Shown here: in pieces, positions 1,892-62,125 of the stretch
Layout of the letters: each line of letters begins with the position of its first letter
How positions within the stretch are numbered: the stretch's first letter is position 1
Origin: Candidatus Enterousia sp.
GTDB taxonomy: Bacteria; Pseudomonadota; Alphaproteobacteria; Rs-D84
DNA: 64,000 bases
Direction: 5' to 3'
Assembly (NCBI GenBank): GCA_045629645.1
Contig: JAZQRR010000027.1
Location: 25,968-89,967 of the forward strand
Made by a program: the position numbers and the translations under genes
Notes under the pieces: model-generated
What the model was told of the DNA's origin: nothing
What the model saw: the letters and a program-made list of their open reading frames with translations, nothing else
The model's database searches: none

Positions 1892-4318
1892 TTAATCCAT
1901 TGCGCCTTGTTTTTTCAGGTATTCATTAACAAAATTATTACCATAAATTTTATATAATTCTTCGGCCAACAAAACAGAAGAACGTCCAGATTCAAACAAT
2001 CTTAACATATTCCCCAGTCCGCCCAATTCTGTATTTAAAATAACAGATTCATTATTTACAGGTCTGGACAACAGTAATGCACGTTTTAAATTAGGATACG
2101 CCTTGCCTTGAATAAAGGCCATTTCCAACGGATTTAAATTCCAATGCGCATAATCATTTACCTCGGCTGCTGGATTTCTAAAGAATAATATTGTCTGTGC
2201 CTGACCACGAACAACGTCACCAATCCCCAGTTTATCCAGAATATTTGCGCGCTGAAACGCTGCCATATACGCCTGACGATTTTTTCTACCTTCTTGTAAA
2301 CCAGTAATAAAACTGTCACGGAACATTTTATTTTCCAGCATTGGTGCAGTTTCGTCAATCATAATCAGCGATGGATTTCCACCGGCCACCGTCGTATTGT
2401 TAATTCTGTGTAAGATATAAGAAATAACTGCTGGCGCTAAAACTTCATCTTGTAAAATATCTGTAAAATCAAACGTTGTTAATCTGGATTGTAAATCCAA
2501 AGTATCAGTTATTTCATTAAACATATCACCATACTGTAATGGGTCTATCCACTTTTTTAACGCGGGTCGCATATTTCCTGTGGAAGAAAAACAACTTTCC
2601 CACAAATTTTTCAACAATCTGTCTTTATCGGATAAATAATCAAAATTAACAGATACAGCACGTGCAATTTCATCGGCAGATTCAACATCATTCTGCCCAG
2701 AAATAATTGCGAACCAGCGTCTTAAAAACGCACGATTTGCGGCACTGTCTGGCATTTTTAGTGGATTTAAGTGTGTCAAGAAAGACTGTGCCATTGGGTC
2801 TGTATTTTTTTCTTTCCCCTGCATAGTAATATACTTACCGCCCACCGCCATTGTAAATATTTCCGCGCCTTTGTTTCTATCAAAGAAAAAAGCTTTTAAC
2901 TTAGGATGTCTTAAACTTTGCGCAATCAAGAACGAGAACAAAGTTGTTTTACCACCACCTGTTGGACCGATTGTTAAAGTATGTCCCACCGCGGCCGGCG
3001 CATCAGAAACATGGAATTGGAACATATACGGTGTACCTTGGGCAGTTGGGAAAACAACCAATGGTCCTGGCCCCCAATCTGAATTTTCAACACCACGTGG
3101 CTGTGTTGACATTGGAATACTGACGGCAGCTGTCTTGGATAACAATTTAAAACTGCGTGGAAAAACATCAAACCCTGGAATCTGTGCGAACCAAGACACC
3201 TTGGCTGCGAACGTTTCTACAATAGGAGAAACCCCGAACGAAGCGGAAATTTTCTTAAAATCATCTATTGATTTTTGTAATTCTTTTTCAGAATCACCAT
3301 ACAGAACAAATAAAGGATAATAGTTAACCATACTCTGATTTCCAGAAACATTTTCATCCATAACAGATTCTGCGGCACTAATTTGTTCTTCGGTTGATTT
3401 TTGTTTTTCATCTGCGGTTGAACGTCTTTGTCGCAAAGTTGTTTCAATATCGGCCTGCCCCATGATATGAAAAGCGTTCATTGTAACCATTTCACATTGA
3501 ATTGTTGATATAGTATCAAAAAATTCTTCATCCAAATAATCCGGAGAAGTTTTAAAAGACAACATTGCAGAATATTGTTTTTGTGCGCCACTGATATACT
3601 TCACCCAACCATCTTTCAAAAATTCCACATCATCAACAGTTGTTAAACTTGCGATATCATTATCTGCTGTTTTTGGTTCTGGTTTTGAAACAGGAGATAA
3701 AATTCTGCCGAAAAATTTCGCCATATTATCTGTTGTTTTATTTTTCAACACTTGTGGTTTATAAGCAGCCAACATAGATTCAATATAATTTCCATATTTA
3801 TTTAATTTTGCACGTGCATCAACACCAGAAACGGACATAACAATATAATAACTATTTGTAAAAATTTTTAATCCTTGTCCTTGCCATTTATCATATATTT
3901 TCTGCAATGTTGGCTGATTAAATTCATATTTTGTCTGTTCTGCTATTTCATCGCGCACCATAAAGAATCGCAAAATAACCCCAGTATCACGAATTTGATT
4001 AAATAATTGTGCACGCAAATCCAAGAATTTTTCACGTGTTTGATTATCTTGCATACTGGTTTGAACCCCTGCCACGCGATAAACACGTAACAAAGTACCA
4101 TCTGTCAACGACATAGAATTATCATCAAAAACTGTATCAAAAGGTAAAAAACTTGAATATTTAGCATATCCAAATTTTGGGAAAATTTTCTTGCCCAGCA
4201 CAGGCACATACAGCATCAGCATAATAAAAACAAACAAAACAACCATCACCATGACGGTCAAAGTAATTGGGAATCCACTTCCTGCAAAATAATCAAAAAA
4301 ATCATGTACATTTGTCAT
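1892..4318 (-). CDS. virB4: Type IV secretion ATPase VirB4/TrbE
   Basis: 808 aa with an N-terminal TM segment and the Walker A motif GPTGGGKTT. Length and layout are typical of VirB4. It overlaps virB3 by 4 nt (ATGA). Confidence 0.9.
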   Translation of the reverse strand: MTNVHDFFDYFAGSGFPITLTVMVMVVLFVFIMLMLYVPVLGKKIFPKFGYAKYSSFLPFDTVFDDNSMSLTDGTLLRVYRVAGVQTSMQDNQTREKFLDLRAQLFNQIRDTGVILRFFMVRDEIAEQTKYEFNQPTLQKIYDKWQGQGLKIFTNSYYIVMSVSGVDARAKLNKYGNYIESMLAAYKPQVLKNKTTDNMAKFFGRILSPVSKPEPKTADNDIASLTTVDDVEFLKDGWVKYISGAQKQYSAMLSFKTSPDYLDEEFFDTISTIQCEMVTMNAFHIMGQADIETTLRQRRSTADEKQKSTEEQISAAESVMDENVSGNQSMVNYYPLFVLYGDSEKELQKSIDDFKKISASFGVSPIVETFAAKVSWFAQIPGFDVFPRSFKLLSKTAAVSIPMSTQPRGVENSDWGPGPLVVFPTAQGTPYMFQFHVSDAPAAVGHTLTIGPTGGGKTTLFSFLIAQSLRHPKLKAFFFDRNKGAEIFTMAVGGKYITMQGKEKNTDPMAQSFLTHLNPLKMPDSAANRAFLRRWFAIISGQNDVESADEIARAVSVNFDYLSDKDRLLKNLWESCFSSTGNMRPALKKWIDPLQYGDMFNEITDTLDLQSRLTTFDFTDILQDEVLAPAVISYILHRINNTTVAGGNPSLIMIDETAPMLENKMFRDSFITGLQEGRKNRQAYMAAFQRANILDKLGIGDVVRGQAQTILFFRNPAAEVNDYAHWNLNPLEMAFIQGKAYPNLKRALLLSRPVNNESVILNTELGGLGNMLRLFESGRSSVLLAEELYKIYGNNFVNEYLKKQGAMD

Positions 4319-4605
4319 GCTGCTAGTTTCCTTGGTACTTTATGTTTTAATAAATTTAATTTTGCGGACACTATTTGCCCCAACTGCGGGTCTTTTTTTG
4401 CAAAAGTTGCGATTATCATATGTACAGAAATCACCCCTGCGAAAAAATATAATGGATTTGTATCATCACCGGTAAAAATCAATCTGACAACAAAGATTGT
4501 AACAAAAGCTAGGAATTGTATTACAAAATTCAACACTGCCAACGAATATGGCACATAGAATATTTGTGCTGGATTTGCCAATGCTTTTAATACTTGTTGT
4601 TTCAT
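4315..4605 (-). CDS. virB3: Type IV secretion protein VirB3/TrbD
   Basis: 96 aa with two TM segments. The N-terminal LKALANPAQIFYVPYSLAVLNF resembles the VirB3 signature (L.K.LtRP..i.GVP). A strong RBS, GGAGAGG, lies upstream. Confidence 0.8.
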   Translation of the reverse strand: MKQQVLKALANPAQIFYVPYSLAVLNFVIQFLAFVTIFVVRLIFTGDDTNPLYFFAGVISVHMIIATFAKKDPQLGQIVSAKLNLLKHKVPRKLAA

Positions 4606-45988: not shown

Positions 45989-47206
45989 ATGACATTTAAT
46001 GATATTTTCAAAGAATCTTGGTTATCAATCAGTGGGAATAAAATACGTTCTTTTTTGACTGTATTGGGTATTATTATTGGTGTTATGGCTGTCGTGATAA
46101 TGGTTGCGGTTGGTGAAACTGTGCAAAAGCAAATCACAGACCAGTTTTCATCTTTGGGGACTAATACCATAATGATACGTGCAGGCGCTGCGCAAAGCGC
46201 GGGTGTACGCACGGGAAATCGTCACACATTAACAATCCAAGACGCAGAATTTATTGGTAAATTGCCAGATGTTATGGCTGTAACTCCTGTTCAAAATGGG
46301 GCGGCACAGGTAATTTATGGTAATAAAAACTGGGCGACATCGATGGTTGGTGTATATCCAGACTATACAACGGTTCAGAATGTTGAAATTGAATACGGGA
46401 CATTTTTTGATAATTCTGCGGTTCGTAATGCGTCAACCTATGCGGTTATTGGGCCAGAAACAGCCCAGGAATTAGGTTTGCCAACCAACCCCGTGGGCGA
46501 GGTTATTCGTATTCAAAATACGCCATTTGTAATTATCGGTGTAACCAAGGCCAAGGGCGATTCTGCCATGGGCAGTCAGGATGATATGGTAATTATTCCA
46601 ATAACAACATTGAAAAAGCGTTTGCAAGGGTCACGTTTTCCAAATTCTGTAAATATGGTTGCATTAAAGTTGTTTGCAGATTCTGATAACACCATGGCTA
46701 TCGAGCAAATGACAGCATTATTGCGTCAGCGTCATCGTCTGAAAGATGATATTGCGGACGATTTCCAGATTATGGATATGAAGCAAATTATGGAAACAAT
46801 GAATACTGTAACGGGATATTTAAAATTGTTATTAATTGCGATTGCGGCGGTGTCGCTTTTGGTTGGTGCGATTGGCATTATGAATATGATGTTAGTATCT
46901 GTGGCCGAACGCACGCGTGAAATCGGTATTCGCAAGGCGATTGGTGCGCGTGAACGTATGATAATAATTCAGTTCTTATCAGAATCTGTATTGATATCTT
47001 TCATCGGTTCGATGATTGGTTTGGTAATTGGTGTTGGTTTATCCCAGGGCGTTGGCAGATTTATATTGGGTTATAATGTTCCGTTCAGCATATGGCCGGT
47101 TGTGTTATCTGTATCTGTTGCTGTAATTGTTGGATTGTCTTCTGGTGTTATGCCTGCAATGAAGGCGGCAAAATTAAATCCGATTGACAGTTTGCGTCAT
47201 GAATAA
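45989..47206 (+). CDS. ABC transporter permease (MacB/FtsX family)
   Basis: 405 aa from the ATG at 45989, which lies 8 nt after GGGGA. The layout is an N-terminal TM, a periplasmic core domain, and a C-terminal FtsX 3-TM bundle. Confidence 0.85.
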   Translation: MTFNDIFKESWLSISGNKIRSFLTVLGIIIGVMAVVIMVAVGETVQKQITDQFSSLGTNTIMIRAGAAQSAGVRTGNRHTLTIQDAEFIGKLPDVMAVTPVQNGAAQVIYGNKNWATSMVGVYPDYTTVQNVEIEYGTFFDNSAVRNASTYAVIGPETAQELGLPTNPVGEVIRIQNTPFVIIGVTKAKGDSAMGSQDDMVIIPITTLKKRLQGSRFPNSVNMVALKLFADSDNTMAIEQMTALLRQRHRLKDDIADDFQIMDMKQIMETMNTVTGYLKLLLIAIAAVSLLVGAIGIMNMMLVSVAERTREIGIRKAIGARERMIIIQFLSESVLISFIGSMIGLVIGVGLSQGVGRFILGYNVPFSIWPVVLSVSVAVIVGLSSGVMPAMKAAKLNPIDSLRHE

Positions 47207-47236
47207 AATAACCGCCGTTTGGCGGTTGTTTTTTTA
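47205..47236. terminator. Bidirectional rho-independent terminator
   Basis: ACCGCC-GTTT-GGCGGT hairpin followed by a T-run. Confidence 0.7.
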
Positions 47237-48553
47237 TTTTTTCTTGGTTGCTTCTTTGATTGCCTTGTACCATTTTGATACTGTATCTTTGGAACTGGAA
47301 TACATTTGATGTACATCTTTTTGCAGGTTACTGCCCAGTTCGTGGGAAATTCTTCCACCCCAATCCTGTGCGCGTTCATTTGCTGTTTTTGCAATCCACC
47401 ATGTCAGCGCCGCAATCAGTGATGTTATCCAGAAACTGTTGTTGTTCAAACTGGGGGTATTAGTTACAGTATCAAATGTGATAATGGTGGATAATAATCC
47501 TGTGCATACAGCGATAATTATAGCCATTGAAATAAAGTATAATGCGGCATTAATAAAACGTTCTACTTGCGATTTTAATGATTCTGCGCTGAACAAACCT
47601 ATAAATCCATTAAATATGTTTCCTGCGATACCTGTGTACGTTGTTTTGCCAATAGTTTCTGCAATTGCAGTAAAAGGCAACATTATAATCCCCAAGAATA
47701 AGTCTGCGATAACACCAAACGCAATAAATGCAAATTTCCATGCCAAGTATATAAATCCTGCAACAAAAGCACCCCCAGATAAAAAAGTAAAAGCGCTGTT
47801 GCCGATACCGTGTGTTATCCAACCCCACCCAACAGCAATCGCAGTATAACAAAATCCGGACAGTCTGGTTGGTACGCACATAATATTTGCTGCGCTGATG
47901 GGGTCTATTAAATTGTCTTTTGATATATTCGCAACAGCATAATCTTGTATTGCTTTGCATGTGTCTGGCAGACTGACGCCAGTTGTTGCGCTGATTGCGT
48001 CCATAATAATATCTGCCAGATATGTTCCAACAAACATAATTGGTGATATTATTGTCATAAACAATTTGGCGGGACCGATTGTCAGTACGCTAATCCATAC
48101 AGATACGATTAAGGCTTTTTTTCCTATTTCTATTAATTTTTCTTTGGCCTTACTTTCGCCTTTGATGATTGTGTATGCTTCAAAAGCAATCCAAAAACCA
48201 AACGCTGCGATAATAAACATTATTACAAATCGCACTAACGAATTATCCAAAACGTCTGCAACAAATGAAAAAGCGTTCATAAATGCCAAGCCGACCTTGG
48301 CTTCGATTGGGACATAGTTTTCAACCAGCTGATTTTTCGAGTGTTCATACATCTGATCGAAATCGTATTTTAAGCTGGACAAGAAACGTAGTCTGTTATT
48401 TTCTGTTGTCCAAGAACCAAAATCCCCAATGTTTGGCATACCCACATCGGCATTTCCTTGCAGATTAGAAGTTGCTGCGAACGCGCCAGATGCCATTGTT
48501 ACAGCAAAAACAGCGATAATAATTTTTGATAAAATAGTTTTCAAGATTCTCAT
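47234..48553 (-). CDS. VirB6/TrbL-like polytopic membrane protein, paralog 1
   Basis: 439 aa with a signal peptide (..ASGAFA-AT) and multiple TM segments. It shares the IISPIMFVG and MLPFTAIA segments with the four neighbouring paralogs. Its ATG overlaps the stop of paralog 2. Confidence 0.55.
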   Translation of the reverse strand: MRILKTILSKIIIAVFAVTMASGAFAATSNLQGNADVGMPNIGDFGSWTTENNRLRFLSSLKYDFDQMYEHSKNQLVENYVPIEAKVGLAFMNAFSFVADVLDNSLVRFVIMFIIAAFGFWIAFEAYTIIKGESKAKEKLIEIGKKALIVSVWISVLTIGPAKLFMTIISPIMFVGTYLADIIMDAISATTGVSLPDTCKAIQDYAVANISKDNLIDPISAANIMCVPTRLSGFCYTAIAVGWGWITHGIGNSAFTFLSGGAFVAGFIYLAWKFAFIAFGVIADLFLGIIMLPFTAIAETIGKTTYTGIAGNIFNGFIGLFSAESLKSQVERFINAALYFISMAIIIAVCTGLLSTIITFDTVTNTPSLNNNSFWITSLIAALTWWIAKTANERAQDWGGRISHELGSNLQKDVHQMYSSSKDTVSKWYKAIKEATKKK

Positions 48554-50007
48554 TATTTTTTACCGATTTTATCAACCACTTTTTTTGTCAGTTCTATTGG
48601 TGCCTTAAAGGCCTGTTTGCCTAAATCGTGCAACCAATCGCCGTATTCAAAGAATTTATCATCTTTGTTTGGTTTTAATCCTGCCAGTAATTTATCGACC
48701 TTGGGGCTAAGCGCATAGAAGTACAACAAGAACAGACATGTCATCATTAATATAAAATCCCATCCATTGTCCAAGAAATCAAAAGCATTTGGATATTTTC
48801 TTTCCACTTCGGCCTTGCGTGCGGTGAAACAATTTTTAAATTTTTCTGCGTCCATTTCCCCATCAACCAGCGCCACAGATTCACAAGTTGAAAATACGTT
48901 CATCACAGACAGTGTTTGTGCATCTGGGTTTTCTGGGACCTGTCCCAGCATTGGTGGTAATATGGCGCTGTATCCATCTTTTGGTCCAGGGAAAAATGTG
49001 TCTGCCGTATATGAAACAGTCGCGTAAATTATTATTACTTTCAGTGTTATTGCAATTATTTGTACTGCAGCACGGACCAGCATATCTATTGCGCGTTTAA
49101 ACAATTCTTTGGCGACTTTCCATGCTTCTTCAAATGCTGCTGCGCCCAGTAACAAAGGTAAGAATATTATCACAAATATTAATTTGAATATGACTGTCAG
49201 AATTTGAAACACTAAATCGAAACCGATTAATAAAAACATCAACACCAGACACAGACCTGCAATCCATGTTAGTGCGCCTGCGCCCATCCCCAGCCATGCA
49301 TAATTCATCAATGCAAAACCACCGGCCGCCCCCGCCAGCATAACGCTGTTTATATTTCCCATAACACACATAAAAGGTTGTAATATCGGGTTTAAAATAT
49401 CTTTTGATTTGTCTGATGTTTTTTCCGGCGCATAACACTTCGCAGCAGTATTTACCCCTGTTGCAGCCATTGATAGTTCTGCGCCGACATACATCACGGG
49501 TGTAATGGTTATTTGTGTAACCGTCTTTAATGCACCTGTTCCCCCCATACCAATTGCGCCAATCAATGTGCCAACAATCATCAGGCGTAATGCCAGTTTC
49601 CATACCTTGTCGAACCAACCTTTGAACGCCAGATTTTTTTCTTTGCCATCCAGTTTTGTTGTATTTTTTGCAGCGTCAAACAAATATTGTGCTGTATGTA
49701 TAAATAAAAATATTCCAAAGCCAACAACCATCAGTATCCACAGGTTGTCCAACATCGCTGTCCAGAATTTTTGTGTTGCATCACCCAGTACATAAAACAG
49801 TTCTGCAATATATTTACATAAAAAACATCCGTTTGCAGACGCAATATCGCCATTTTGTACACCAATAGCAACCATAAAGTTGTCCATGCTGGTATATGTT
49901 AATGCCGCGTCATTCAATGCAGAAGATAAATACCAAACACCCAACCCCAAGGCAATGCACCACATCAACACTTTTATGCCCAACAAGATAAGGTTTTTTT
50001 TCAACAT
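48553..50007 (-). CDS. VirB6/TrbL-like polytopic membrane protein, paralog 2
   Basis: 484 aa with an N-proximal CFLC motif, the ITPVMYVG segment, and LPLLLGAAAFEEAWK (a P-x7-F-x3-W segment). Confidence 0.6.
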   Translation of the reverse strand: MLKKNLILLGIKVLMWCIALGLGVWYLSSALNDAALTYTSMDNFMVAIGVQNGDIASANGCFLCKYIAELFYVLGDATQKFWTAMLDNLWILMVVGFGIFLFIHTAQYLFDAAKNTTKLDGKEKNLAFKGWFDKVWKLALRLMIVGTLIGAIGMGGTGALKTVTQITITPVMYVGAELSMAATGVNTAAKCYAPEKTSDKSKDILNPILQPFMCVMGNINSVMLAGAAGGFALMNYAWLGMGAGALTWIAGLCLVLMFLLIGFDLVFQILTVIFKLIFVIIFLPLLLGAAAFEEAWKVAKELFKRAIDMLVRAAVQIIAITLKVIIIYATVSYTADTFFPGPKDGYSAILPPMLGQVPENPDAQTLSVMNVFSTCESVALVDGEMDAEKFKNCFTARKAEVERKYPNAFDFLDNGWDFILMMTCLFLLYFYALSPKVDKLLAGLKPNKDDKFFEYGDWLHDLGKQAFKAPIELTKKVVDKIGKK

Positions 50008-51212
50008 TATTTATCTTTCTTTTCTGTTTTATCTTTGGTTTCGCCACCGTTAATAATTGTCTTGCCAACGGTTACAGCATTATCGAACGCTTTCTTGGTC
50101 AACGTCATCATATCGTTTGCGAATTGTTCGCCATATTTGTTGTTTTCTTCGACATTAAATGCGCCCAAGACCATTTTTGTAACTTGTGGTATCTGATTGA
50201 ATATATAATTTAGTACATATACCAAGGCAACACAACCAATCAATGACATTGTATATAAATTATCAGTGTTTAAATCATCGGCGAAAATTTGTCCACTGGT
50301 AATTGAATCCATCAAATTTGTAACATTTGCATCGGGTGCAGAAAAGAACTTTGCAATAATTACCATAATGACAGTATAGGTCAGTACGACGGACCCCAGT
50401 GTAACGATTGCGTTTATCAGATTTTTTATTTGATTAACACCGACAGTTTTCCCCATTCCACTAATCCATTTTGGAACATGTTCTGCGCCCGAGAAAGGTA
50501 TGCTGACCAATGATATTGGGAAAAAGAACGCAAAGAAAGCCATCGCGACAATCGCGTCTGCAAAATAACAACAGTATTTAAAGAATATTTTTAAAAATCC
50601 CCATGCGATATACAAACCAATCAAGAATAATAAAAGGTGTTTTATAAAACTGCCAACGCTCAACAATGCTTTCCATGAAAAAGCATTGTCCATTACCGCA
50701 ACCCCCAGTTTCATATAAGATTGGAATTGTGTAATTGTTGTTTTCATTATCATTATGATTGTATCGCGTAGTTTTGGTCGGAAAAATCCGTTTTCTTCTA
50801 TTTTTAACGGTTCATAATCTACTTTTTCATTAACGATATCATTGTTTGATTTTATCATTGCCTGTGAATATTGCAGGGTAATTTCTGCCACAGGTTCAAA
50901 CGTAACTGTTGTTATAAATCTGGGTACGCTTAACCCCGCCCCCAGCAGAGTCAACGCAATAAAAGATGTAATGATTACACGAACAACAGATTTTTGTAAA
51001 AAAGGATCAGGTACACCTTTTTTGAAGTTTTGATAAACGGCATTAAATACGAACGCGGTGAATATAAATGCGAACAATATGACGCAAACTTCACCAAACT
51101 TTTCATATACTGCGGCCGCTGTGTTTGATATTATTTCAAACAGTTTATCAAACACCGCGCATCCCCAGCACTGAACGTTTTCTTCTATCAAAGAGTTTAT
51201 CCATGCGTTCAT
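50007..51212 (-). CDS. VirB6/TrbL-like polytopic membrane protein, paralog 3
   Basis: 401 aa with CWGC near the N-terminus, the FEPVAEIT segment, and FPISLVSIPFSGAEHVPKWI (a P-x7-F-x7-KW segment). Confidence 0.6.
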   Translation of the reverse strand: MNAWINSLIEENVQCWGCAVFDKLFEIISNTAAAVYEKFGEVCVILFAFIFTAFVFNAVYQNFKKGVPDPFLQKSVVRVIITSFIALTLLGAGLSVPRFITTVTFEPVAEITLQYSQAMIKSNNDIVNEKVDYEPLKIEENGFFRPKLRDTIIMIMKTTITQFQSYMKLGVAVMDNAFSWKALLSVGSFIKHLLLFLIGLYIAWGFLKIFFKYCCYFADAIVAMAFFAFFFPISLVSIPFSGAEHVPKWISGMGKTVGVNQIKNLINAIVTLGSVVLTYTVIMVIIAKFFSAPDANVTNLMDSITSGQIFADDLNTDNLYTMSLIGCVALVYVLNYIFNQIPQVTKMVLGAFNVEENNKYGEQFANDMMTLTKKAFDNAVTVGKTIINGGETKDKTEKKDK

Positions 51213-52465
51213 TTTGATTTAAACCATCCTGATACGTTTTTTAATTGTTTTCCCAAATTGTGTGCGCCACCCCACAGTGTCTTGGAATCGGTTATGACAC
51301 TGTCATACAATGTTGTCATACCGGAACCAACATACATATTCAGTTGTTTCTTGGTCAGGTCAAATATTTTGAACATCAGATAAAATGTTAATATCGCAGA
51401 CAACCATAAAATAGAATGTTGTCCAAATCCCATTGCGTTTTGTGCGACCTGTGGCACATTAGAATTTGCAAATCCGCCTGCGCTGACCACAAATACCGAA
51501 GAATTCCATTGAAACAGCGCCCTGATTATTGCGACGTTTATAGACAATATAAATGCGCAAGCAATCATTGTTACAATAAGTTGCTGTAATGCCTTGGTTA
51601 TACCGCTGAATGCGGGCCATATGTCAAACCATTTGTCGCTGTGTTTGAATACATATGTCAGAACATAGAACGGATACAGTATTATTTGCATACCGAAATT
51701 AAATATTCCTTGGATAATTAGTAATGCCATAAATATATTGCAAGAAACAAACGTAAATATCAAAATGATTCCAGTTATAATATTCATTAAATCTTCGCCA
51801 CCATGTAGTATCGGTGTCATTAATCCGCGCAATCCATTTGTAACAAATCTAAATCCACGTTTTATAACTTGGTTATTTGCGTGTGATAAATCGGCAACTG
51901 GTTGTGTCAGGAATTTACAAGAATCTTCTGAAATCCACGCCTTTTGTACAACGTCTTCGGGGCATTCGACCGGTGTGGTATGTACGTTAATGCCACTTAT
52001 ATTTTCAACAATATGATTGGTATAAATTGCGCCAAATTCTAAAAACGGATTTATCAGCCATTGCGTTAAATATACGGGTTTCAGTTGTAATAAAGCCAAC
52101 GCAGCAATAACTGCACGCAGTCCAGGTTTTAAAACATTTTCAAAAATTTTCGTGCCAGAAAAATTATTATCAACCCCAGACATACCAAAAATAGATGCCC
52201 ATGATTTTGGAATGTACAGTTTTAATAAATACAGTGCAATACTGATGCCCAGAAAAGACCAAACAAAAATATAAATGATTCCATTGCCATTTCCAACAAA
52301 GTATTCATACATACCTGTTGCGACCATCATCAACGCATCCAGTACCAACGGCACAAACGGCGACAGGTCCAGTGCGTCAATAATATCTGCTGCGGACGCA
52401 ACAGATGGTGCAATAAACATTGCACTGATAATCAGGCTGTGAAACAGTTTTTTTAATAAATTCAT
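51209..52465 (-). CDS. VirB6/TrbL-like polytopic membrane protein, paralog 4
   Basis: 418 aa from the ATG at 52465 (MNLLKKLFHSLIISAMFIAPSVASA signal peptide). The track ORF starts at an upstream TTG. It has the INPFLEFG segment and YPFYVLTYVFKHSDKWF. Confidence 0.6.
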   Translation of the reverse strand: MNLLKKLFHSLIISAMFIAPSVASAADIIDALDLSPFVPLVLDALMMVATGMYEYFVGNGNGIIYIFVWSFLGISIALYLLKLYIPKSWASIFGMSGVDNNFSGTKIFENVLKPGLRAVIAALALLQLKPVYLTQWLINPFLEFGAIYTNHIVENISGINVHTTPVECPEDVVQKAWISEDSCKFLTQPVADLSHANNQVIKRGFRFVTNGLRGLMTPILHGGEDLMNIITGIILIFTFVSCNIFMALLIIQGIFNFGMQIILYPFYVLTYVFKHSDKWFDIWPAFSGITKALQQLIVTMIACAFILSINVAIIRALFQWNSSVFVVSAGGFANSNVPQVAQNAMGFGQHSILWLSAILTFYLMFKIFDLTKKQLNMYVGSGMTTLYDSVITDSKTLWGGAHNLGKQLKNVSGWFKSK

Positions 52466-52533
52466 TCTCTCGTAAATATTTATTTTTATCAATTATATCA
52501 CATTTGTTTCAAAATGTGGTATAGTTAAAAACA

Positions 52534-53832
52534 ATGAATCGGTTAAAAAAATTTTGGACGGCGTTTTTAGCATTTTTACCCTGTGCATCTGGTGCGGCGG
52601 TTCCTTTTTTATTGGCTGGTGCTGCTGGGGTTGGGGTAATTGCCGGTTTTTCTATATATCGTTCGTCTGTTCCGGTTAATATGGCGGACGCGTTAAAGTT
52701 TTTTTCCAGTTGTTGGTCTTGTCAGATGTTTTCTGACATTATGTCAACAATGTCGGGGTTGTTGCCCAGAATATACAGTGCGCTGGGACATACCATTGTA
52801 CCATTTGCGATAATTTTAACAGCGGTGTGGTTTGCGTGGACGTTGTTAAGCAGTTTTATGAATTCTTCGGTTGAAAAACCGTGGAGTATATCGGAAAAAT
52901 TCGGCATCCATGTTTTAAAGTTGGGTTTTGTGTCTGCTTTGTTGGTGGCGCCATTACCCCGTATGATTACAAATATTGCCATAGAGCCGATATTTAACAT
53001 TGGTCTGTCTTTGAATCGTATGGCGGTTCATGATGACAGTTTTGATTCTTGTGTTGTTGCGACTGCGTTGGCAGATCCTGTGTCTGTTGATTCGCGTGCG
53101 GCAGAATCTGGTGCGTTTTCACCAAAACTACGTCATAATTTGACATGTGAATTGGCGGGTGTGCATCAGTTGACTGGTCTGGGGATGACGGTTGGTTGGA
53201 CGATGTTAAATATGGCATTTGACCATGATTATATGCATAAAATTATGTGGGGTACGCCGATTTTTCCAAATGTACCAATGTTTTTTATTGGTGCGATGAT
53301 AATGTTGTTATTTGCTGCGGCGTTACTGCCAGTTCCATTGTATTTTTTAGAAGTCTTTATAAAATTGTCCATGGATTTGGTTATGTTGCCGTTGATGTTA
53401 TTGGCGTGGTTGTTTTCTGGTTGGAAAATATCATTAGCGGGTGCGGGCACAACGATTCGCAAAATGATAGACAATGTAATATCTGCAATACTTGGCATTG
53501 CGATGGTTGGGGTTTTTGTATCTTTTGCGATAATGTTTTTAAATGCTGTGTTTGGCGACTGGGGCGGGGCCAGTAATTTGATTACGGCATTAAATTCCAG
53601 CGAATCGCAAGGCAGTAAATATTTGATGGATGCCTTGATGTTGCGTAACGACAGTGTGATTACGATTATAATGATGGGTATCTTTATTGCGATGTTTATG
53701 ATATCTATACCTGCGCTGGTAAAATCATTGTTCAGTGTCCAGATTTCAACAGAATACTATGATAAATGGAAGAAAAACTTGGAAATATTGGGTGCCAATG
53801 CCAAAAAATGGTACGAATCGTTAAAAAAATAA
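52534..53832 (+). CDS. VirB6/TrbL-like polytopic membrane protein, paralog 5 (divergently transcribed)
   Basis: 432 aa with a CWSC motif, the IEPIFNIG segment and LPLMLLAWLFSGWK. Confidence 0.6.
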   Translation: MNRLKKFWTAFLAFLPCASGAAVPFLLAGAAGVGVIAGFSIYRSSVPVNMADALKFFSSCWSCQMFSDIMSTMSGLLPRIYSALGHTIVPFAIILTAVWFAWTLLSSFMNSSVEKPWSISEKFGIHVLKLGFVSALLVAPLPRMITNIAIEPIFNIGLSLNRMAVHDDSFDSCVVATALADPVSVDSRAAESGAFSPKLRHNLTCELAGVHQLTGLGMTVGWTMLNMAFDHDYMHKIMWGTPIFPNVPMFFIGAMIMLLFAAALLPVPLYFLEVFIKLSMDLVMLPLMLLAWLFSGWKISLAGAGTTIRKMIDNVISAILGIAMVGVFVSFAIMFLNAVFGDWGGASNLITALNSSESQGSKYLMDALMLRNDSVITIIMMGIFIAMFMISIPALVKSLFSVQISTEYYDKWKKNLEILGANAKKWYESLKK

Positions 53833-53900: not shown

Positions 53901-54410
53901 ATGAAAAAGTTTCCGATTCTTTACTGGCCACGTACAACCAAGGGGGATGAGTGTTATCAGCTCTCGCGCAAGGTTATAAATAACACAGTTGGTGTTATGC
54001 CTGATGTTTGTACAGATGATTTGGATATTTCTGATTATCTGGCGTCCAACCCAGATGCTGTAATATATTATCCTGTATTTTGTGGTTCTACTGGCTGGTG
54101 GGGCGAATTGTTGGGTGGTAACGCAGTTGTCTGTGACAAGTTGATAATATCTCCGGAATGTCAATTAATGGTGATAAAATCAAAGCAAAATGCCAAATCA
54201 GAAGGAAAAAATCAACTGCTGGCGGCTGAAATTTGTCCGACCAGTGGTTTTTTCAAGAAAATGAATTCTTCGATTGCAACTGTTGCGGATATGTTGGCGA
54301 CTGATACAGGTACGATATTGGCGCTGTTTTCGGGGCACAGCACATCTCAGTTTATAAATGTGTTGGAATCGACAGGAAATTCTTATCTTGGGTGCATTGG
54401 CAGATATTAA
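53901..54410 (+). CDS. Hypothetical Cys-containing protein downstream of VirB6-like paralog 5
   Basis: 169 aa with 7 Cys and no obvious signal peptide or TM segment. I recognise no family. Confidence 0.4.
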   Translation: MKKFPILYWPRTTKGDECYQLSRKVINNTVGVMPDVCTDDLDISDYLASNPDAVIYYPVFCGSTGWWGELLGGNAVVCDKLIISPECQLMVIKSKQNAKSEGKNQLLAAEICPTSGFFKKMNSSIATVADMLATDTGTILALFSGHSTSQFINVLESTGNSYLGCIGRY

Positions 54411-59855: not shown

Positions 59856-59883
59856 AAAAATCCCGCGTTTTGCGGGTTTTTTT
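59854..59883. terminator. Bidirectional rho-independent terminator
   Basis: CCCGC-GTTTT-GCGGG hairpin flanked by A and T runs, between the convergent rpsO and virD4 genes. Confidence 0.75.
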
Positions 59884-62125
59884 ATATTTTTAGTTCACGT
59901 ATTTGTTTGGTTTTTGCATCATATACTTTTGGTGTACCTTCGTATCCCAGTGCATTATGATGCTTTGGTATCATGTATTCTGGAATTGGTGATGCACGTT
60001 CCATTTTTACTTTATCGTTAATCGCAATTTGTATTTTATTCTTGCGCAAGAAGTGCCATTCGCCATCCGCTTCGATTGGTCTGTTGTAATGTCCTTGGTA
60101 CAGAACGATTTGTCGTGCGTCTGGCAATGTCATCAAATCCATAGGCGAGAACAAGTCTTCTTCTTTATCTACTTCGATATCTTTTCCGTCTGGTCCTTTT
60201 TCCTTTTTCTTGGTTTTTTTCTTGCCAATCATACGTGTGAACTTTTCTGCGGTTGCATAATCGTTAACGCGCAATATGATTTTTGCAGCAGTATTTGCGA
60301 TGATTGTTTCAGCAGCTTTATCGCCATACTTGTCTTGAATCTGACTGATATCCTGACCCACAATCAGATAAGAAACCTTTTGTCCACGACCAACGGCAGG
60401 ACCTTGGATTATTGCTTCCAGTTTATTCATTGTTGGCATTTCGTCCAATACAAACAGCGCAGGATAAGGTCCCAATTTTTGACCGTGATTTATCTTTTCT
60501 GGTGGGTTTGCAATCAAGAACTTTGACAACAGTTCAATAAACATACTGGTAATTGGCTTAAACGCAGGCGCATCAGCAACGTTCATTGACAGATATATTG
60601 TAATAGGTTTAATTTTTCCGTCTGTTGGATCCACCATACCGCGCATATCGCTGAAATGTATATCTGAATGTCTGGTGTGTTTGTTCACCGCAGGATGTCT
60701 GAAAATGTTCAATCCTGCGTTCATTGTTGACATAATAGAACCACGTTCCTTGTCAGGTGTGTTTGCCAAGTTAATCAGCGCGGAAATTGCATCACTGTCG
60801 TACGAATACAGGCGCGCTTCATTTATAGCTCCGTTCAAAAAGTCTTTCATTGGGTCAGCCATCATAACCATCTGGTCGCCTTGACGTTTTCTTTCTTCGA
60901 TATCATTTGCGACTTTGATTTGACCTTCGACGTACCACGCCAAGAACATTGGAATTGATGCTTCTGCGCCATGCCATTCTGTTGGCAGACCGCCCCATGT
61001 ACCAACGTGTACATAATTATCAATATTCAATTCGCCACGTTGCAGCGCAGACATTGCAGCGTATGCGTTCGGATCTGATGACATTGTCATATAATAATCC
61101 ATCAGTACGACTGCGTCTTGTTCGTCAAAAGTGCTGTTTTTTAATCTGTTATAGAAATAATCGTTTGCCTTGGCGCGTTCCACCTTGGATACAATAAAGT
61201 TAACAAAGCCTGTTAATGCCGCACGTGCAGTATTTGACCAGTGTGGATCTTTGGCGTTTTCTTCAATGATAGTATTAACGATAACTTGGATGTAAGTACT
61301 GCGTTCTTCAAGTGTTTCTGGCAAGTTTTCAGGAGATAATGGATTCCATGCTGGATAATATATTCCGTTTTCTGGTTCGTCAGGTGCGGCCCAGTTTAAT
61401 ATAAACACTGGTCCAACTGTTGCGCGATATCCAGAAGTGTCCCTGTCCAATTCTGGTTTTGGGTCATTTATAATCATTGAAACGTTGTCGCAACCTAAGA
61501 TAGTAGGAATAACGACGCCCTGTGTTTTACCAGTACCAGCAGGCGCCAACAACAATGCGGACAAGCAAGAATCCATTTTCAAAGGTTTGTCTTTGAAATA
61601 TCCCAAAACCATCATAAAACCACCGAATAAACCTTCGTTGTTTTTGTGGTCTGCCTTCATTTTTTTGATGTCACCAACAGTTGCCTTGCGCGAAGATTTT
61701 TCATCAAATTTATCTTTGGAATGTGGGTTAAATTCGTCAGTCATTGTTGCGTCTGACAGCAGATAGTATGCAATAACTGGTAATAATGGCGTGATGCATG
61801 CAATATCAGGACGTAAAATACAGCGCACCAACCAGTCCGGAATCTGGGCCAAAACAGATACACCAAATGTGTTAAGCGCTTGTTGCAGGTAAATCCATAT
61901 CCACTGTTTCGTTGCAGGGGACCAGCCGTATCGCCATATTTGTTCAACAGGAAATGCGCATGCGACCAAAAAAGCCGCGATTAACCATACTATAATAGTC
62001 CATCTGATTGACCAGAATTCGCGCGCCAAAGGTGTTTTTTCGTGTTCTTTATACGCATCAGATTTGAATATGCCGATGCCTTTGCCCTTGCCGGACATAG
62101 ATAAAAAGTTGAATTTAACTGCCAT
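59882..62125 (-). CDS. virD4: Type IV secretion coupling protein VirD4/TraG
   Basis: 747 aa with N-terminal TM segments, the Walker A motif LAPAGTGKTQGVVIPT and Walker B-like LFVLDEMP. Confidence 0.9.
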   Translation of the reverse strand: MAVKFNFLSMSGKGKGIGIFKSDAYKEHEKTPLAREFWSIRWTIIVWLIAAFLVACAFPVEQIWRYGWSPATKQWIWIYLQQALNTFGVSVLAQIPDWLVRCILRPDIACITPLLPVIAYYLLSDATMTDEFNPHSKDKFDEKSSRKATVGDIKKMKADHKNNEGLFGGFMMVLGYFKDKPLKMDSCLSALLLAPAGTGKTQGVVIPTILGCDNVSMIINDPKPELDRDTSGYRATVGPVFILNWAAPDEPENGIYYPAWNPLSPENLPETLEERSTYIQVIVNTIIEENAKDPHWSNTARAALTGFVNFIVSKVERAKANDYFYNRLKNSTFDEQDAVVLMDYYMTMSSDPNAYAAMSALQRGELNIDNYVHVGTWGGLPTEWHGAEASIPMFLAWYVEGQIKVANDIEERKRQGDQMVMMADPMKDFLNGAINEARLYSYDSDAISALINLANTPDKERGSIMSTMNAGLNIFRHPAVNKHTRHSDIHFSDMRGMVDPTDGKIKPITIYLSMNVADAPAFKPITSMFIELLSKFLIANPPEKINHGQKLGPYPALFVLDEMPTMNKLEAIIQGPAVGRGQKVSYLIVGQDISQIQDKYGDKAAETIIANTAAKIILRVNDYATAEKFTRMIGKKKTKKKEKGPDGKDIEVDKEEDLFSPMDLMTLPDARQIVLYQGHYNRPIEADGEWHFLRKNKIQIAINDKVKMERASPIPEYMIPKHHNALGYEGTPKVYDAKTKQIRELKI

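Follow-up and report, generated by a model that had tools for sequence, protein, structure and literature searches.

In the type IV secretion system (T4SS) of plasmid R388, VirB6 (TrwI) is a pentamer that is inserted in the inner membrane and forms the stalk base; a pentamer of VirB5 caps it (Mace et al. 2022, PMC9259494). TrwI is encoded by a single gene and its pentamer is a homopentamer; other members of the TrbL/VirB6 family (PF04610), such as the conjugative P-type TrbL and Agrobacterium VirB6, are likewise single genes within contiguous vir or trb operons. Multicopy VirB6 has been described for the rvh T4SS of the Rickettsiales, where Rickettsia species possess five tandem paralogs of 674–1154 aa, RvhB6a-e (Gillespie et al. 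2009, PMC2653234), and the Anaplasmataceae possess four, VirB6-1 to -4 of Anaplasma and Ehrlichia (PMC2653234). In RvhB6, the VirB6/TrbL domain has a mean length of 413 aa (PMC2653234, PMC11077975, PMC7648143), and the rvh layout has been called a bona fide signature of the Rickettsiales (PMC11077975). Here we describe an array of five open reading frames (ORFs), named P1 to P5, in a 64-kb stretch of a Candidatus Enterousia genome (906 kb, 95% complete); this whole stretch is referred to as the window, and coordinates given without a locus or contig are those of the window. We regard it as quite probable that P1–P5 are ancient, highly diverged VirB6 paralogs, which most likely provide the VirB6 platform of a dispersed VirB/VirD4 T4SS. 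The genus Enterousia has been placed in the order Rs-D84, whose genomes are uniformly reduced, and a secretion system is not among the features mentioned in the paper that describes them (PMC12306168).

The array comprises P1 (47234–48553, 439 aa), P2 (48553–50007, 484 aa), P3 (50007–51212, 401 aa) and P4 (51209–52465, 418 aa) on the minus strand and P5 (52534–53832, 432 aa) on the plus strand, corresponding to the fifth, fourth, third, second and first genes of the ancestral array, respectively, with P5 inverted in this genome. The minus-strand genes overlap at their stop and start codons (TAATG at P2/P1, TAATG at P3/P2 and ATGA at P4/P3), and the four are translationally coupled. P4 and P5 are divergent across a spacer of 68 nt (52466–52533), a length that requires the ATG start of P4 at position 52465; the alternative TTG start at 52492 would give a protein of 427 aa, and it is the ATG start that produces a signal-peptide-like N-terminus, as in the orthologs. 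Each paralog has six to seven strongly hydrophobic 19-residue segments (Kyte-Doolittle mean of at least 1.5). An earlier note on this DNA had described five multi-pass ORFs of 401–484 aa with these overlaps and this spacer as VirB6/TrbL-like paralogs of an rvh-like system, and the ORFs and their junctions were found again at the same coordinates. All database records encountered for these proteins are labelled 'hypothetical' and carry no Pfam domain.

The five proteins share only 16–21% pairwise identity in a MAFFT alignment, and pairwise blastp comparisons connect P3 with P5 (1e-15) and P1 with P2 (1e-7), with the remaining pairs at 1e-3 or worse. For profile comparisons, each paralog was represented by its ortholog group of 23–28 sequences drawn from relatives. 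These groups match each other in HHalign with 94.7–99.6% probability in ten out of ten pairs, collinearly over most of their length, whereas reversed alignments of the same composition give at most 10.2%. Judged from these profiles, the mutual paralogy of P1–P5 is real, ancient and far beyond chance. Two sequence blocks that had been aligned by eye in the earlier note hold in a real alignment of 43 sequences, in which conservation of the 'IEPIFNIG' proline (P152 of P5) reaches at least 90% and the 'LPLMLL' proline (P286 of P5) is invariant. The trailing tryptophan assigned to the second block did not survive this comparison, as it does not align between the paralogs. A tryptophan six residues past the invariant proline, a possible counterpart of the conserved, essential tryptophan in the TM-cytoplasmic region of VirB6, is kept in P5 and in the consensus of the CWxC-type clade described below (LLPxxIxxWVF) and is not kept in P1–P4.

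The connection to VirB6 runs through intermediate families. In L034, a locus of the distant family f3 within the order Rs-D84, a syntenic array encodes proteins of 523–842 aa, and two of its genes exceed the PF04610 cut-off of 25.9 bits (27.1 and 26.0 bits); the first of them (L034:8166–9737) is a clear P2 ortholog (phmmer 3.5e-25). In a class-wide search with PF04610, VirB6 genes that lie in tandem and score weakly turned up in many small genomes of Alphaproteobacteria. Hidden Markov models (HMMs) of the Enterousia groups match tandem PF04610-positive proteins of these lineages outside the order with E-values down to 5.6e-32 for P5, 3.3e-23 for P2 and 7.9e-18 for P3; these values, like those of HHalign, refer to small local databases or pairwise comparisons. 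In HHalign, all five groups match the alignment of CWxC-type VirB6 proteins at 98.3–99.9% over 367–435 columns (P1 99.4%, E 3e-21; P2 99.8%; P3 99.7%; P4 98.3%), compared with at most 9.9% for reversed alignments. The CWxC-type clade in turn matches canonical TrbL at 95.4% (E 2e-8, 254 columns; reversed 0.5%), the latter being represented by 21 proteins collected by jackhmmer from genuine TrbL, with CWxC-type members removed. This canonical set can be taken as genuine, because a slightly larger version of it, the same 21 sequences and two more, matches the 'TrwI protein' 7o3v_F at 1.2e-25. The family as a whole is small: an exhaustive HMMER search of 1.84e9 representatives with the P5 profile gave 181 matches at E up to 1e-3, and 24 out of 66 distant representatives matched by this profile are PF04610-positive. 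A single-protein search for related loci recovered relatives only within the genus.

The predicted structures point in the same direction. AlphaFold models of P5 (predicted local distance difference test score, pLDDT, 78.5; predicted template modelling score, pTM, 0.73) and of P4, which is the paralog with the weakest sequence evidence (pLDDT 75.7, pTM 0.71), are all-helical; no templates were used, and the input alignments contained PF04610-positive relatives. In Foldseek searches of the PDB with both models, the only meaningful match was to R388 TrwI/VirB6 chains (PDB 7O3V, 8RT9, 8RTD), with a probability of 0.99–1.00, and the top five hits of the P4 model are all such chains. Like the models, TrwI is all-alpha with long hydrophobic helices, and the two sides share 10–14% identity. 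Template modelling (TM) scores by target are 0.43–0.56 over 338–353 aligned columns (0.49–0.56 for P5 alone), whereas other membrane or helical proteins, transporters included, reach about 0.2–0.3 at most. We treat this modelled fold match as supporting, not decisive by itself.

Profile and fold searches with helical membrane proteins readily give spurious matches, and P1–P5 have no direct sequence match in Pfam, NCBIfam or the PDB, as would be expected if they were an unrelated lineage-specific polytopic family, such as a transporter, whose VirB6 signals are an artefact of hydrophobic composition. Yet controls of the same composition stay at or below 10% when reversed, against 95–99.9% in the forward direction, the alignments are collinear over 250–435 columns, specific motifs (CWxC and the invariant proline) are common to the clade, and Foldseek TM scores above 0.4 occur only for TrwI, with transporters at or below 0.2. 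Such an origin is thus largely refuted and in our view very remote.

Several results weigh against the favoured reading as well. P1–P5 have no PF04610 match in Pfam by hmmscan at E up to 10 and no NCBIfam match at the same threshold. The L034 orthologs score only just above the PF04610 cut-off. Single Enterousia groups compared with canonical TrbL give at most 9.9%, which is not significant, so that membership in VirB6 rests on the intermediate clade. Sequence-profile searches of the PDB with the five paralogs, the P2 group and a broad CWxC-type set found no VirB6 or TrwI, and the Foldseek matches have weak E-values (0.007–0.06) with moderate TM scores. Finally, no VirB2 was detected by Pfam in the genome, and the completeness of the machine is therefore unproven. 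The earlier note had named the lack of a significant PF04610 match as grounds for abandoning its VirB6/TrbL-like claim, and the window proteins indeed have none. We consider this failure outweighed by the intermediate profiles and the predicted fold, which bear out that claim: P1–P5 are well supported, on profile and model evidence, as very distant members of the TrbL/VirB6 superfamily. With the conjugative TrbL and Agrobacterium VirB6 proteins they share a polytopic core, a T4SS context and superfamily membership by transitive profile-profile comparison, and they differ in forming a multi-paralog array with distinctive cysteine motifs.

The clade to which these proteins belong, here named CWxC-type, is marked by an N-terminal C-[WF]-x-C motif where the first long helix starts, the invariant proline in an 'LPL' helix and, usually, a pair of cysteines in a large loop. 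As the earlier note had it, three paralogs carry the CxxC motif and four carry the loop pair, and both features are conserved among orthologs. The CxxC is kept in 26 out of 29 orthologs of P2 (CFLC, residues 61–64), in all 24 of P3 (CWGC, residues 15–18, at the extreme N-terminus) and in all 26 of P5 (CWSC, residues 60–63). The loop pair is kept in 24/24 orthologs of P1 (C199/C226), 29/29 of P2 (C191/C214), 23/24 of P4 (C177/C192) and 26/26 of P5 (C173/C205). P2 has an additional pair, C375/C393. P1 and P4 lack CxxC and P3 lacks the loop pair, and a single four-cysteine metal site formed by CxxC and the loop pair was rejected as a general rule, since P3 has only the former and P1 and P4 only the latter. 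Across the CWxC-type clade, conservation of the motif and of the Phi-[FY]-[DE]-x-Phi-[FY] pattern behind it is 90% or more. It is present in all members of the outside arrays that were examined, including PF04610-positive ones, and in all five genes of family f3, and it is absent at array positions 2 and 5 (P4 and P1) in Enterousia and in some sister families. On this distribution, CWxC is an ancestral hallmark of this VirB6 clade that was lost in P1 and P4, not one gained in P2, P3 and P5. We know of no CWxC motif or loop cysteine pair in R388 TrwI.

The same distribution does not favour the suggestion that CxxC marks a redox-active or metal-binding variant, as the motif is nearly invariant and ancestral, with losses in two paralogs. 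In the P5 model, CWxC caps the N-terminus of the first long helix (H61–109). In P3, CWGC lies in an acidic N-terminal tail ahead of the first hydrophobic helix, which is followed by Lys/Arg residues; by analogy, this charge layout would fit an N-out topology, as in Agrobacterium VirB6. The conserved cysteines would be periplasmic and form disulfides. Structural disulfides are the simplest reading, because the genome encodes a DsbA-family protein (53.7 bits); the cysteines might also have a redox or metal role.

Among the relatives, Candidatus Enterousia that live in the gut of ruminants, birds, horses and humans (a few of their NCBI records are loosely labelled 'uncultured Rickettsiales bacterium'), all five genes occur in the same order and orientation in 77 out of 80 loci, and the other three loci show part of the array. 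Five-gene arrays occur across the order Rs-D84, and the P5 family was found in 114 out of 121 sampled genomes of the order. In L041 and L042, which stand for two deeper-branching genera in the family of Enterousia, and in four further families of the order, the five genes are co-directional in the order P5-P4-P3-P2-P1, from which we conclude that the divergence of P5 in Enterousia arose by a local inversion. None of the Rs-D84 arrays examined is flanked by virB3 or virB4, and among the loci examined in outside lineages, a single one is. The earlier note was correct that the array is unlinked from virB3-virB4, from which it is separated by 42.6 kb. Its proposal of a relocation away from these genes finds no counterpart in the order: unlinkage appears from the loci compared to be the ancestral state in Rs-D84, and the only local rearrangement seen is the inversion of P5.

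In a maximum likelihood tree of 57 sequences, computed in quick search mode and having long branches that make deep nodes uncertain, the Rs-D84 genes group by array position; for example, position 4 forms the P2 clade (seven rows) with 99% support in the Shimodaira-Hasegawa-like approximate likelihood-ratio test. This grouping indicates that the five-fold duplication is older than the radiation of the order. Arrays from outside lineages form one clade with lineage-specific clusters of paralogs, suggesting separate expansions to five genes in L094/L103 and in L101 and to four in L100. Expansion to exactly five thus appears, from the sequences, to have happened independently in at least three lineages: Rs-D84, L094/L103 and L101.

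Other components of the presumed T4SS are dispersed over the chromosome and do not form one operon. The window contains virB4 (1892–4318, minus strand; PF03135, E 5e-14), virB3 (4315–4605, minus strand; PF05101, E 1e-4, 23.1 bits, just below the 23.9-bit cut-off) and, 6 kb past the array, a virD4 coupling-protein gene (59882–62125, minus strand; PF02534, 113.8 and 56.1 bits). The virB4 gene is single-copy, with a tblastn search using the window VirB4 finding only itself in the 95%-complete genome. A virB8-virB9-virB10 cluster is located on another contig (C20). VirB8 (PF04335) has matches on C20 (30.5 bits, above the cut-off) and on C13 (22.1 bits, below the 23.2-bit cut-off), and VirB9 (PF03524) has one match, on C20, although a truncated second copy could escape detection. 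Two T2SSE-family ATPases are encoded in the genome. The one at C26:61214–61552, a 333-aa ORF with 81.7 bits, is of VirB11 size, and the other, a 546-aa ORF at C27:11976–13184, upstream of the window, matches over its full length (212 bits) and is probably a pilus or secretion ATPase of another system. VirB5 (PF07996) gave no Pfam match in the genome at E up to 1, its absence being defined by Pfam matching. Starting 9 nt past virB4 on the minus strand, there is a 203-aa ORF (1271–1882) with a signal-peptide-like start and no Pfam match at E up to 0.01; in Rickettsiales this site is that of the first virB6.

VirB6 is normally an essential component of a T4SS. A six-frame search of the entire genome with PF04610 gave no matches, and exactly five members of the VirB6-like family are present. 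As the genome has no PF04610 match or other VirB6, P1–P5 are the only candidates for the otherwise missing protein. They would form the VirB6 platform in a machine with VirB3-VirB4, VirB8-VirB9-VirB10, the VirB11-like ATPase and VirD4, and without VirB5. The array never adjoins other vir genes in Rs-D84 and its proteins are too diverged for PF04610, as might also be the case for a VirB6-derived envelope device no longer working with a T4SS, such as a channel or platform that stands alone in the membrane and serves a type IVb pilus or another system. Against this possibility, a reduced genome of 906 kb keeps VirB3, VirB4, VirB8, VirB9, VirB10, the VirB11-like ATPase and VirD4 with no other VirB6, and both virB3-virB4 and virD4 lie within the same 64-kb window as the array. 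Since we know of no VirB-type machine working without VirB6, we consider a detached device improbable and favour the platform of a T4SS.

Comparison with rvh, which rests on published descriptions, reveals both common and divergent traits. Shared with rvh are divergent, tandem, co-transcribed VirB6 paralogs, vir islets scattered among housekeeping genes, the lack of VirB5 and a reduced genome. The whole Enterousia proteins (401–484 aa) have the size of the VirB6/TrbL domain of the longer RvhB6 proteins, and they escape PF04610. In rvh, VirB4 (RvhB4-I, RvhB4-II) and VirB9 are duplicated, whereas one VirB4 and one VirB9 were found in Enterousia; virB3-virB4-virB6 are contiguous in rvh islet A, whereas 42.6 kb lie between them here; and rvh hosts are Rickettsiales, whereas Enterousia belongs to Rs-D84. 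VirB8, also duplicated in rvh, is a borderline case in Enterousia, where the match of the second, VirB8-like gene stays below the cut-off. The Enterousia duplications are lineage-specific with respect to the other lineages sampled. The description of the system as rvh-like therefore stands for the multicopy VirB6 and the missing VirB5, and falls short for the single VirB4, the single VirB9, the host order and the duplications, since those in the other lineages sampled are not orthologous to them.

The closest relatives beyond the order are found in unannotated arrays of other uncultured gut and rumen Alphaproteobacteria (L094, L098, L100–L105, L186–L189; HHalign 98–99.9%). Several Alphaproteobacteria with small genomes carry tandem multigene arrays of the CWxC-type clade, and these arrays share with Enterousia the CWxC motif, the invariant proline and the tandem layout, most of them being unlinked from virB3-virB4. 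Their proteins are larger (about 400–1330 aa) and weakly PF04610-positive, every paralog keeps CWxC, the paralogs come from separate duplications, and some members are fused to peptidoglycan-hydrolase domains. No publication describing these arrays was found. An unannotated, highly diverged VirB6 clade and a five-gene array of its members in a gut lineage are thus apparently new, both being undescribed in the literature searched.

We infer that P1–P5 act in a T4SS, where the five paralogs would co-assemble, most plausibly one each in the five-fold VirB6 position; the pentamer of R388 TrwI equals the gene count of five found here, in a genome without VirB5. A 1:1:1:1:1 heteropentamer is to us the most attractive, if tentative, model because the five paralogs are anciently fixed, four of them are translationally coupled, VirB5 is missing and expansion to five is recurrent. 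In its full form, which we offer as possible and with considerable doubt, the paralogs would be obligate partners that fill, one each, the five seats of a normally homopentameric VirB6 ring and build an asymmetric stalk base without VirB5, with periplasmic CWxC motifs in three subunits and their loss in two; expansion to five would have been repeated independently in several alphaproteobacterial lineages because the ring has five seats. No paper proposing a VirB6 heteropentamer was found in the literature searched.

The heteropentamer is weakened by arrays of three to four genes in L099, L100 and L102, which indicate that five is not universal in the clade. Together with the four VirB6 genes of the Anaplasmataceae (PMC2653234), these arrays mean that five is not obligatory, and they would be better accommodated if P1–P5 were VirB6 homologs of a T4SS that never share one mixed ring, forming instead alternative homo-oligomers or specialised or regulatory subunits for different substrates, gating or assembly states, as hypothesised for rvh. 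The duplicated rvh components have been proposed to autoregulate secretion (PMC11077975), and in Enterousia the paralogs are unlike in their cysteine motifs and P5 is transcribed apart from the other four. A division of labour of this kind is harder to reconcile with the 1:1:1:1:1 co-retention of the genes in 77 out of 77 untruncated loci with fixed gene order, the ancient orthologous positions across the order, the coupling of four genes, which favours equimolar synthesis, and the independent expansions to exactly five in at least three lineages. We consider separate homo-oligomers or specialised subunits, the main rival, rather unlikely, and the mixed ring remains the model that we prefer.

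The array also exposes an annotation gap, in that a gut lineage widespread in humans and animals has a T4SS that seems incomplete or is overlooked. That Rs-D84 and other gut Alphaproteobacteria combine several VirB6 copies with scattered vir genes and lack VirB5 calls into question the status of rvh as a Rickettsiales signature, and, if the five-seat ring is true, the 'rvh design' with its multicopy VirB6 would be an alphaproteobacterial solution that is either recurrent or ancient. Rs-D84 arrays offer non-pathogenic comparators for the evolution of rvh-type machines, and with five fixed paralogs set against a five-fold ring, the reason for the multiplication of VirB6 in rvh-type systems becomes testable. 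As a previously unremarked handle, the CWxC motif found throughout the clade can serve mutagenesis and a dedicated HMM. Whether these metabolically dependent bacteria with their tiny genomes attack other cells or attach to them is a question on which a working T4SS would also bear.

Around the array, a bidirectional intrinsic terminator hairpin (47205–47232) ends both the P4-P3-P2-P1 unit and a convergent ABC-permease gene. The spacer between P4 and P5 is presumed to be a bidirectional promoter region produced by the P5 inversion; a promoter scan of both of its strands found only weak promoter-like hexamers, not above the shuffled expectation. Directly downstream of P5 and in the same direction, there is a cysteine-rich ORF (53901–54410, plus strand) of 169 aa with seven cysteines, no transmembrane segment and no Pfam match. 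By tblastn, it follows P5 in about 75 out of 80 Enterousia loci with 68–89% identity and is found in L043 with 52% identity, and it is absent in L041 and L042, where P5 is not inverted, and in the remaining families of Rs-D84. Co-transcription with P5 is conceivable, and the ORF may be an accessory gene.

Among the 66 distant representatives of CWxC-type VirB6, 13 carry a fused Peptidase_M23 domain (best E 2.5e-20; e.g., P0189 and P0193/P0284), and two carry a VgrG3-like C-terminal peptidoglycan-hydrolase domain. A TrbL+M23 protein of 1331 aa was observed in human-gut metagenome contigs, and the loci L188:8782–12777 and L189:8463–12458 are also among the fusion cases. These M23 and VgrG3-like fusions may replace a wall-cutting function of the VirB1 type. 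In high-G+C TrbL loci (L064 and others), the longest ORF across the match is often an arginine-rich artefact in the wrong frame, as long as the true one.

Finally, two kinds of neighbouring genes were observed near related arrays. In L034, the VirB6 array adjoins a conserved divergent cluster of four genes (L034:15820–19178) encoding proteins of 421, 354, 188 and 147 aa. The 147-aa protein is of the SUKH-1/SMI1-KNR4 immunity type (PF09346, 29.9 bits), and the 188-aa protein has a homolog in the genome from which the window comes (C34:83657–84118, tblastn 9e-15). The cluster is a hint that the T4SS may operate in an interbacterial, toxin-immunity context. Outside the order, the gene after the VirB6 array encodes a protein of about 330 aa that has two HTH_3 domains (L186:11784–12776, L188:12913–13884) and is a candidate, by sequence, for a dedicated regulator of the system; a homolog with 35% identity is encoded elsewhere in the Enterousia genome (C28:5540–6532, tblastn 1.5e-54).

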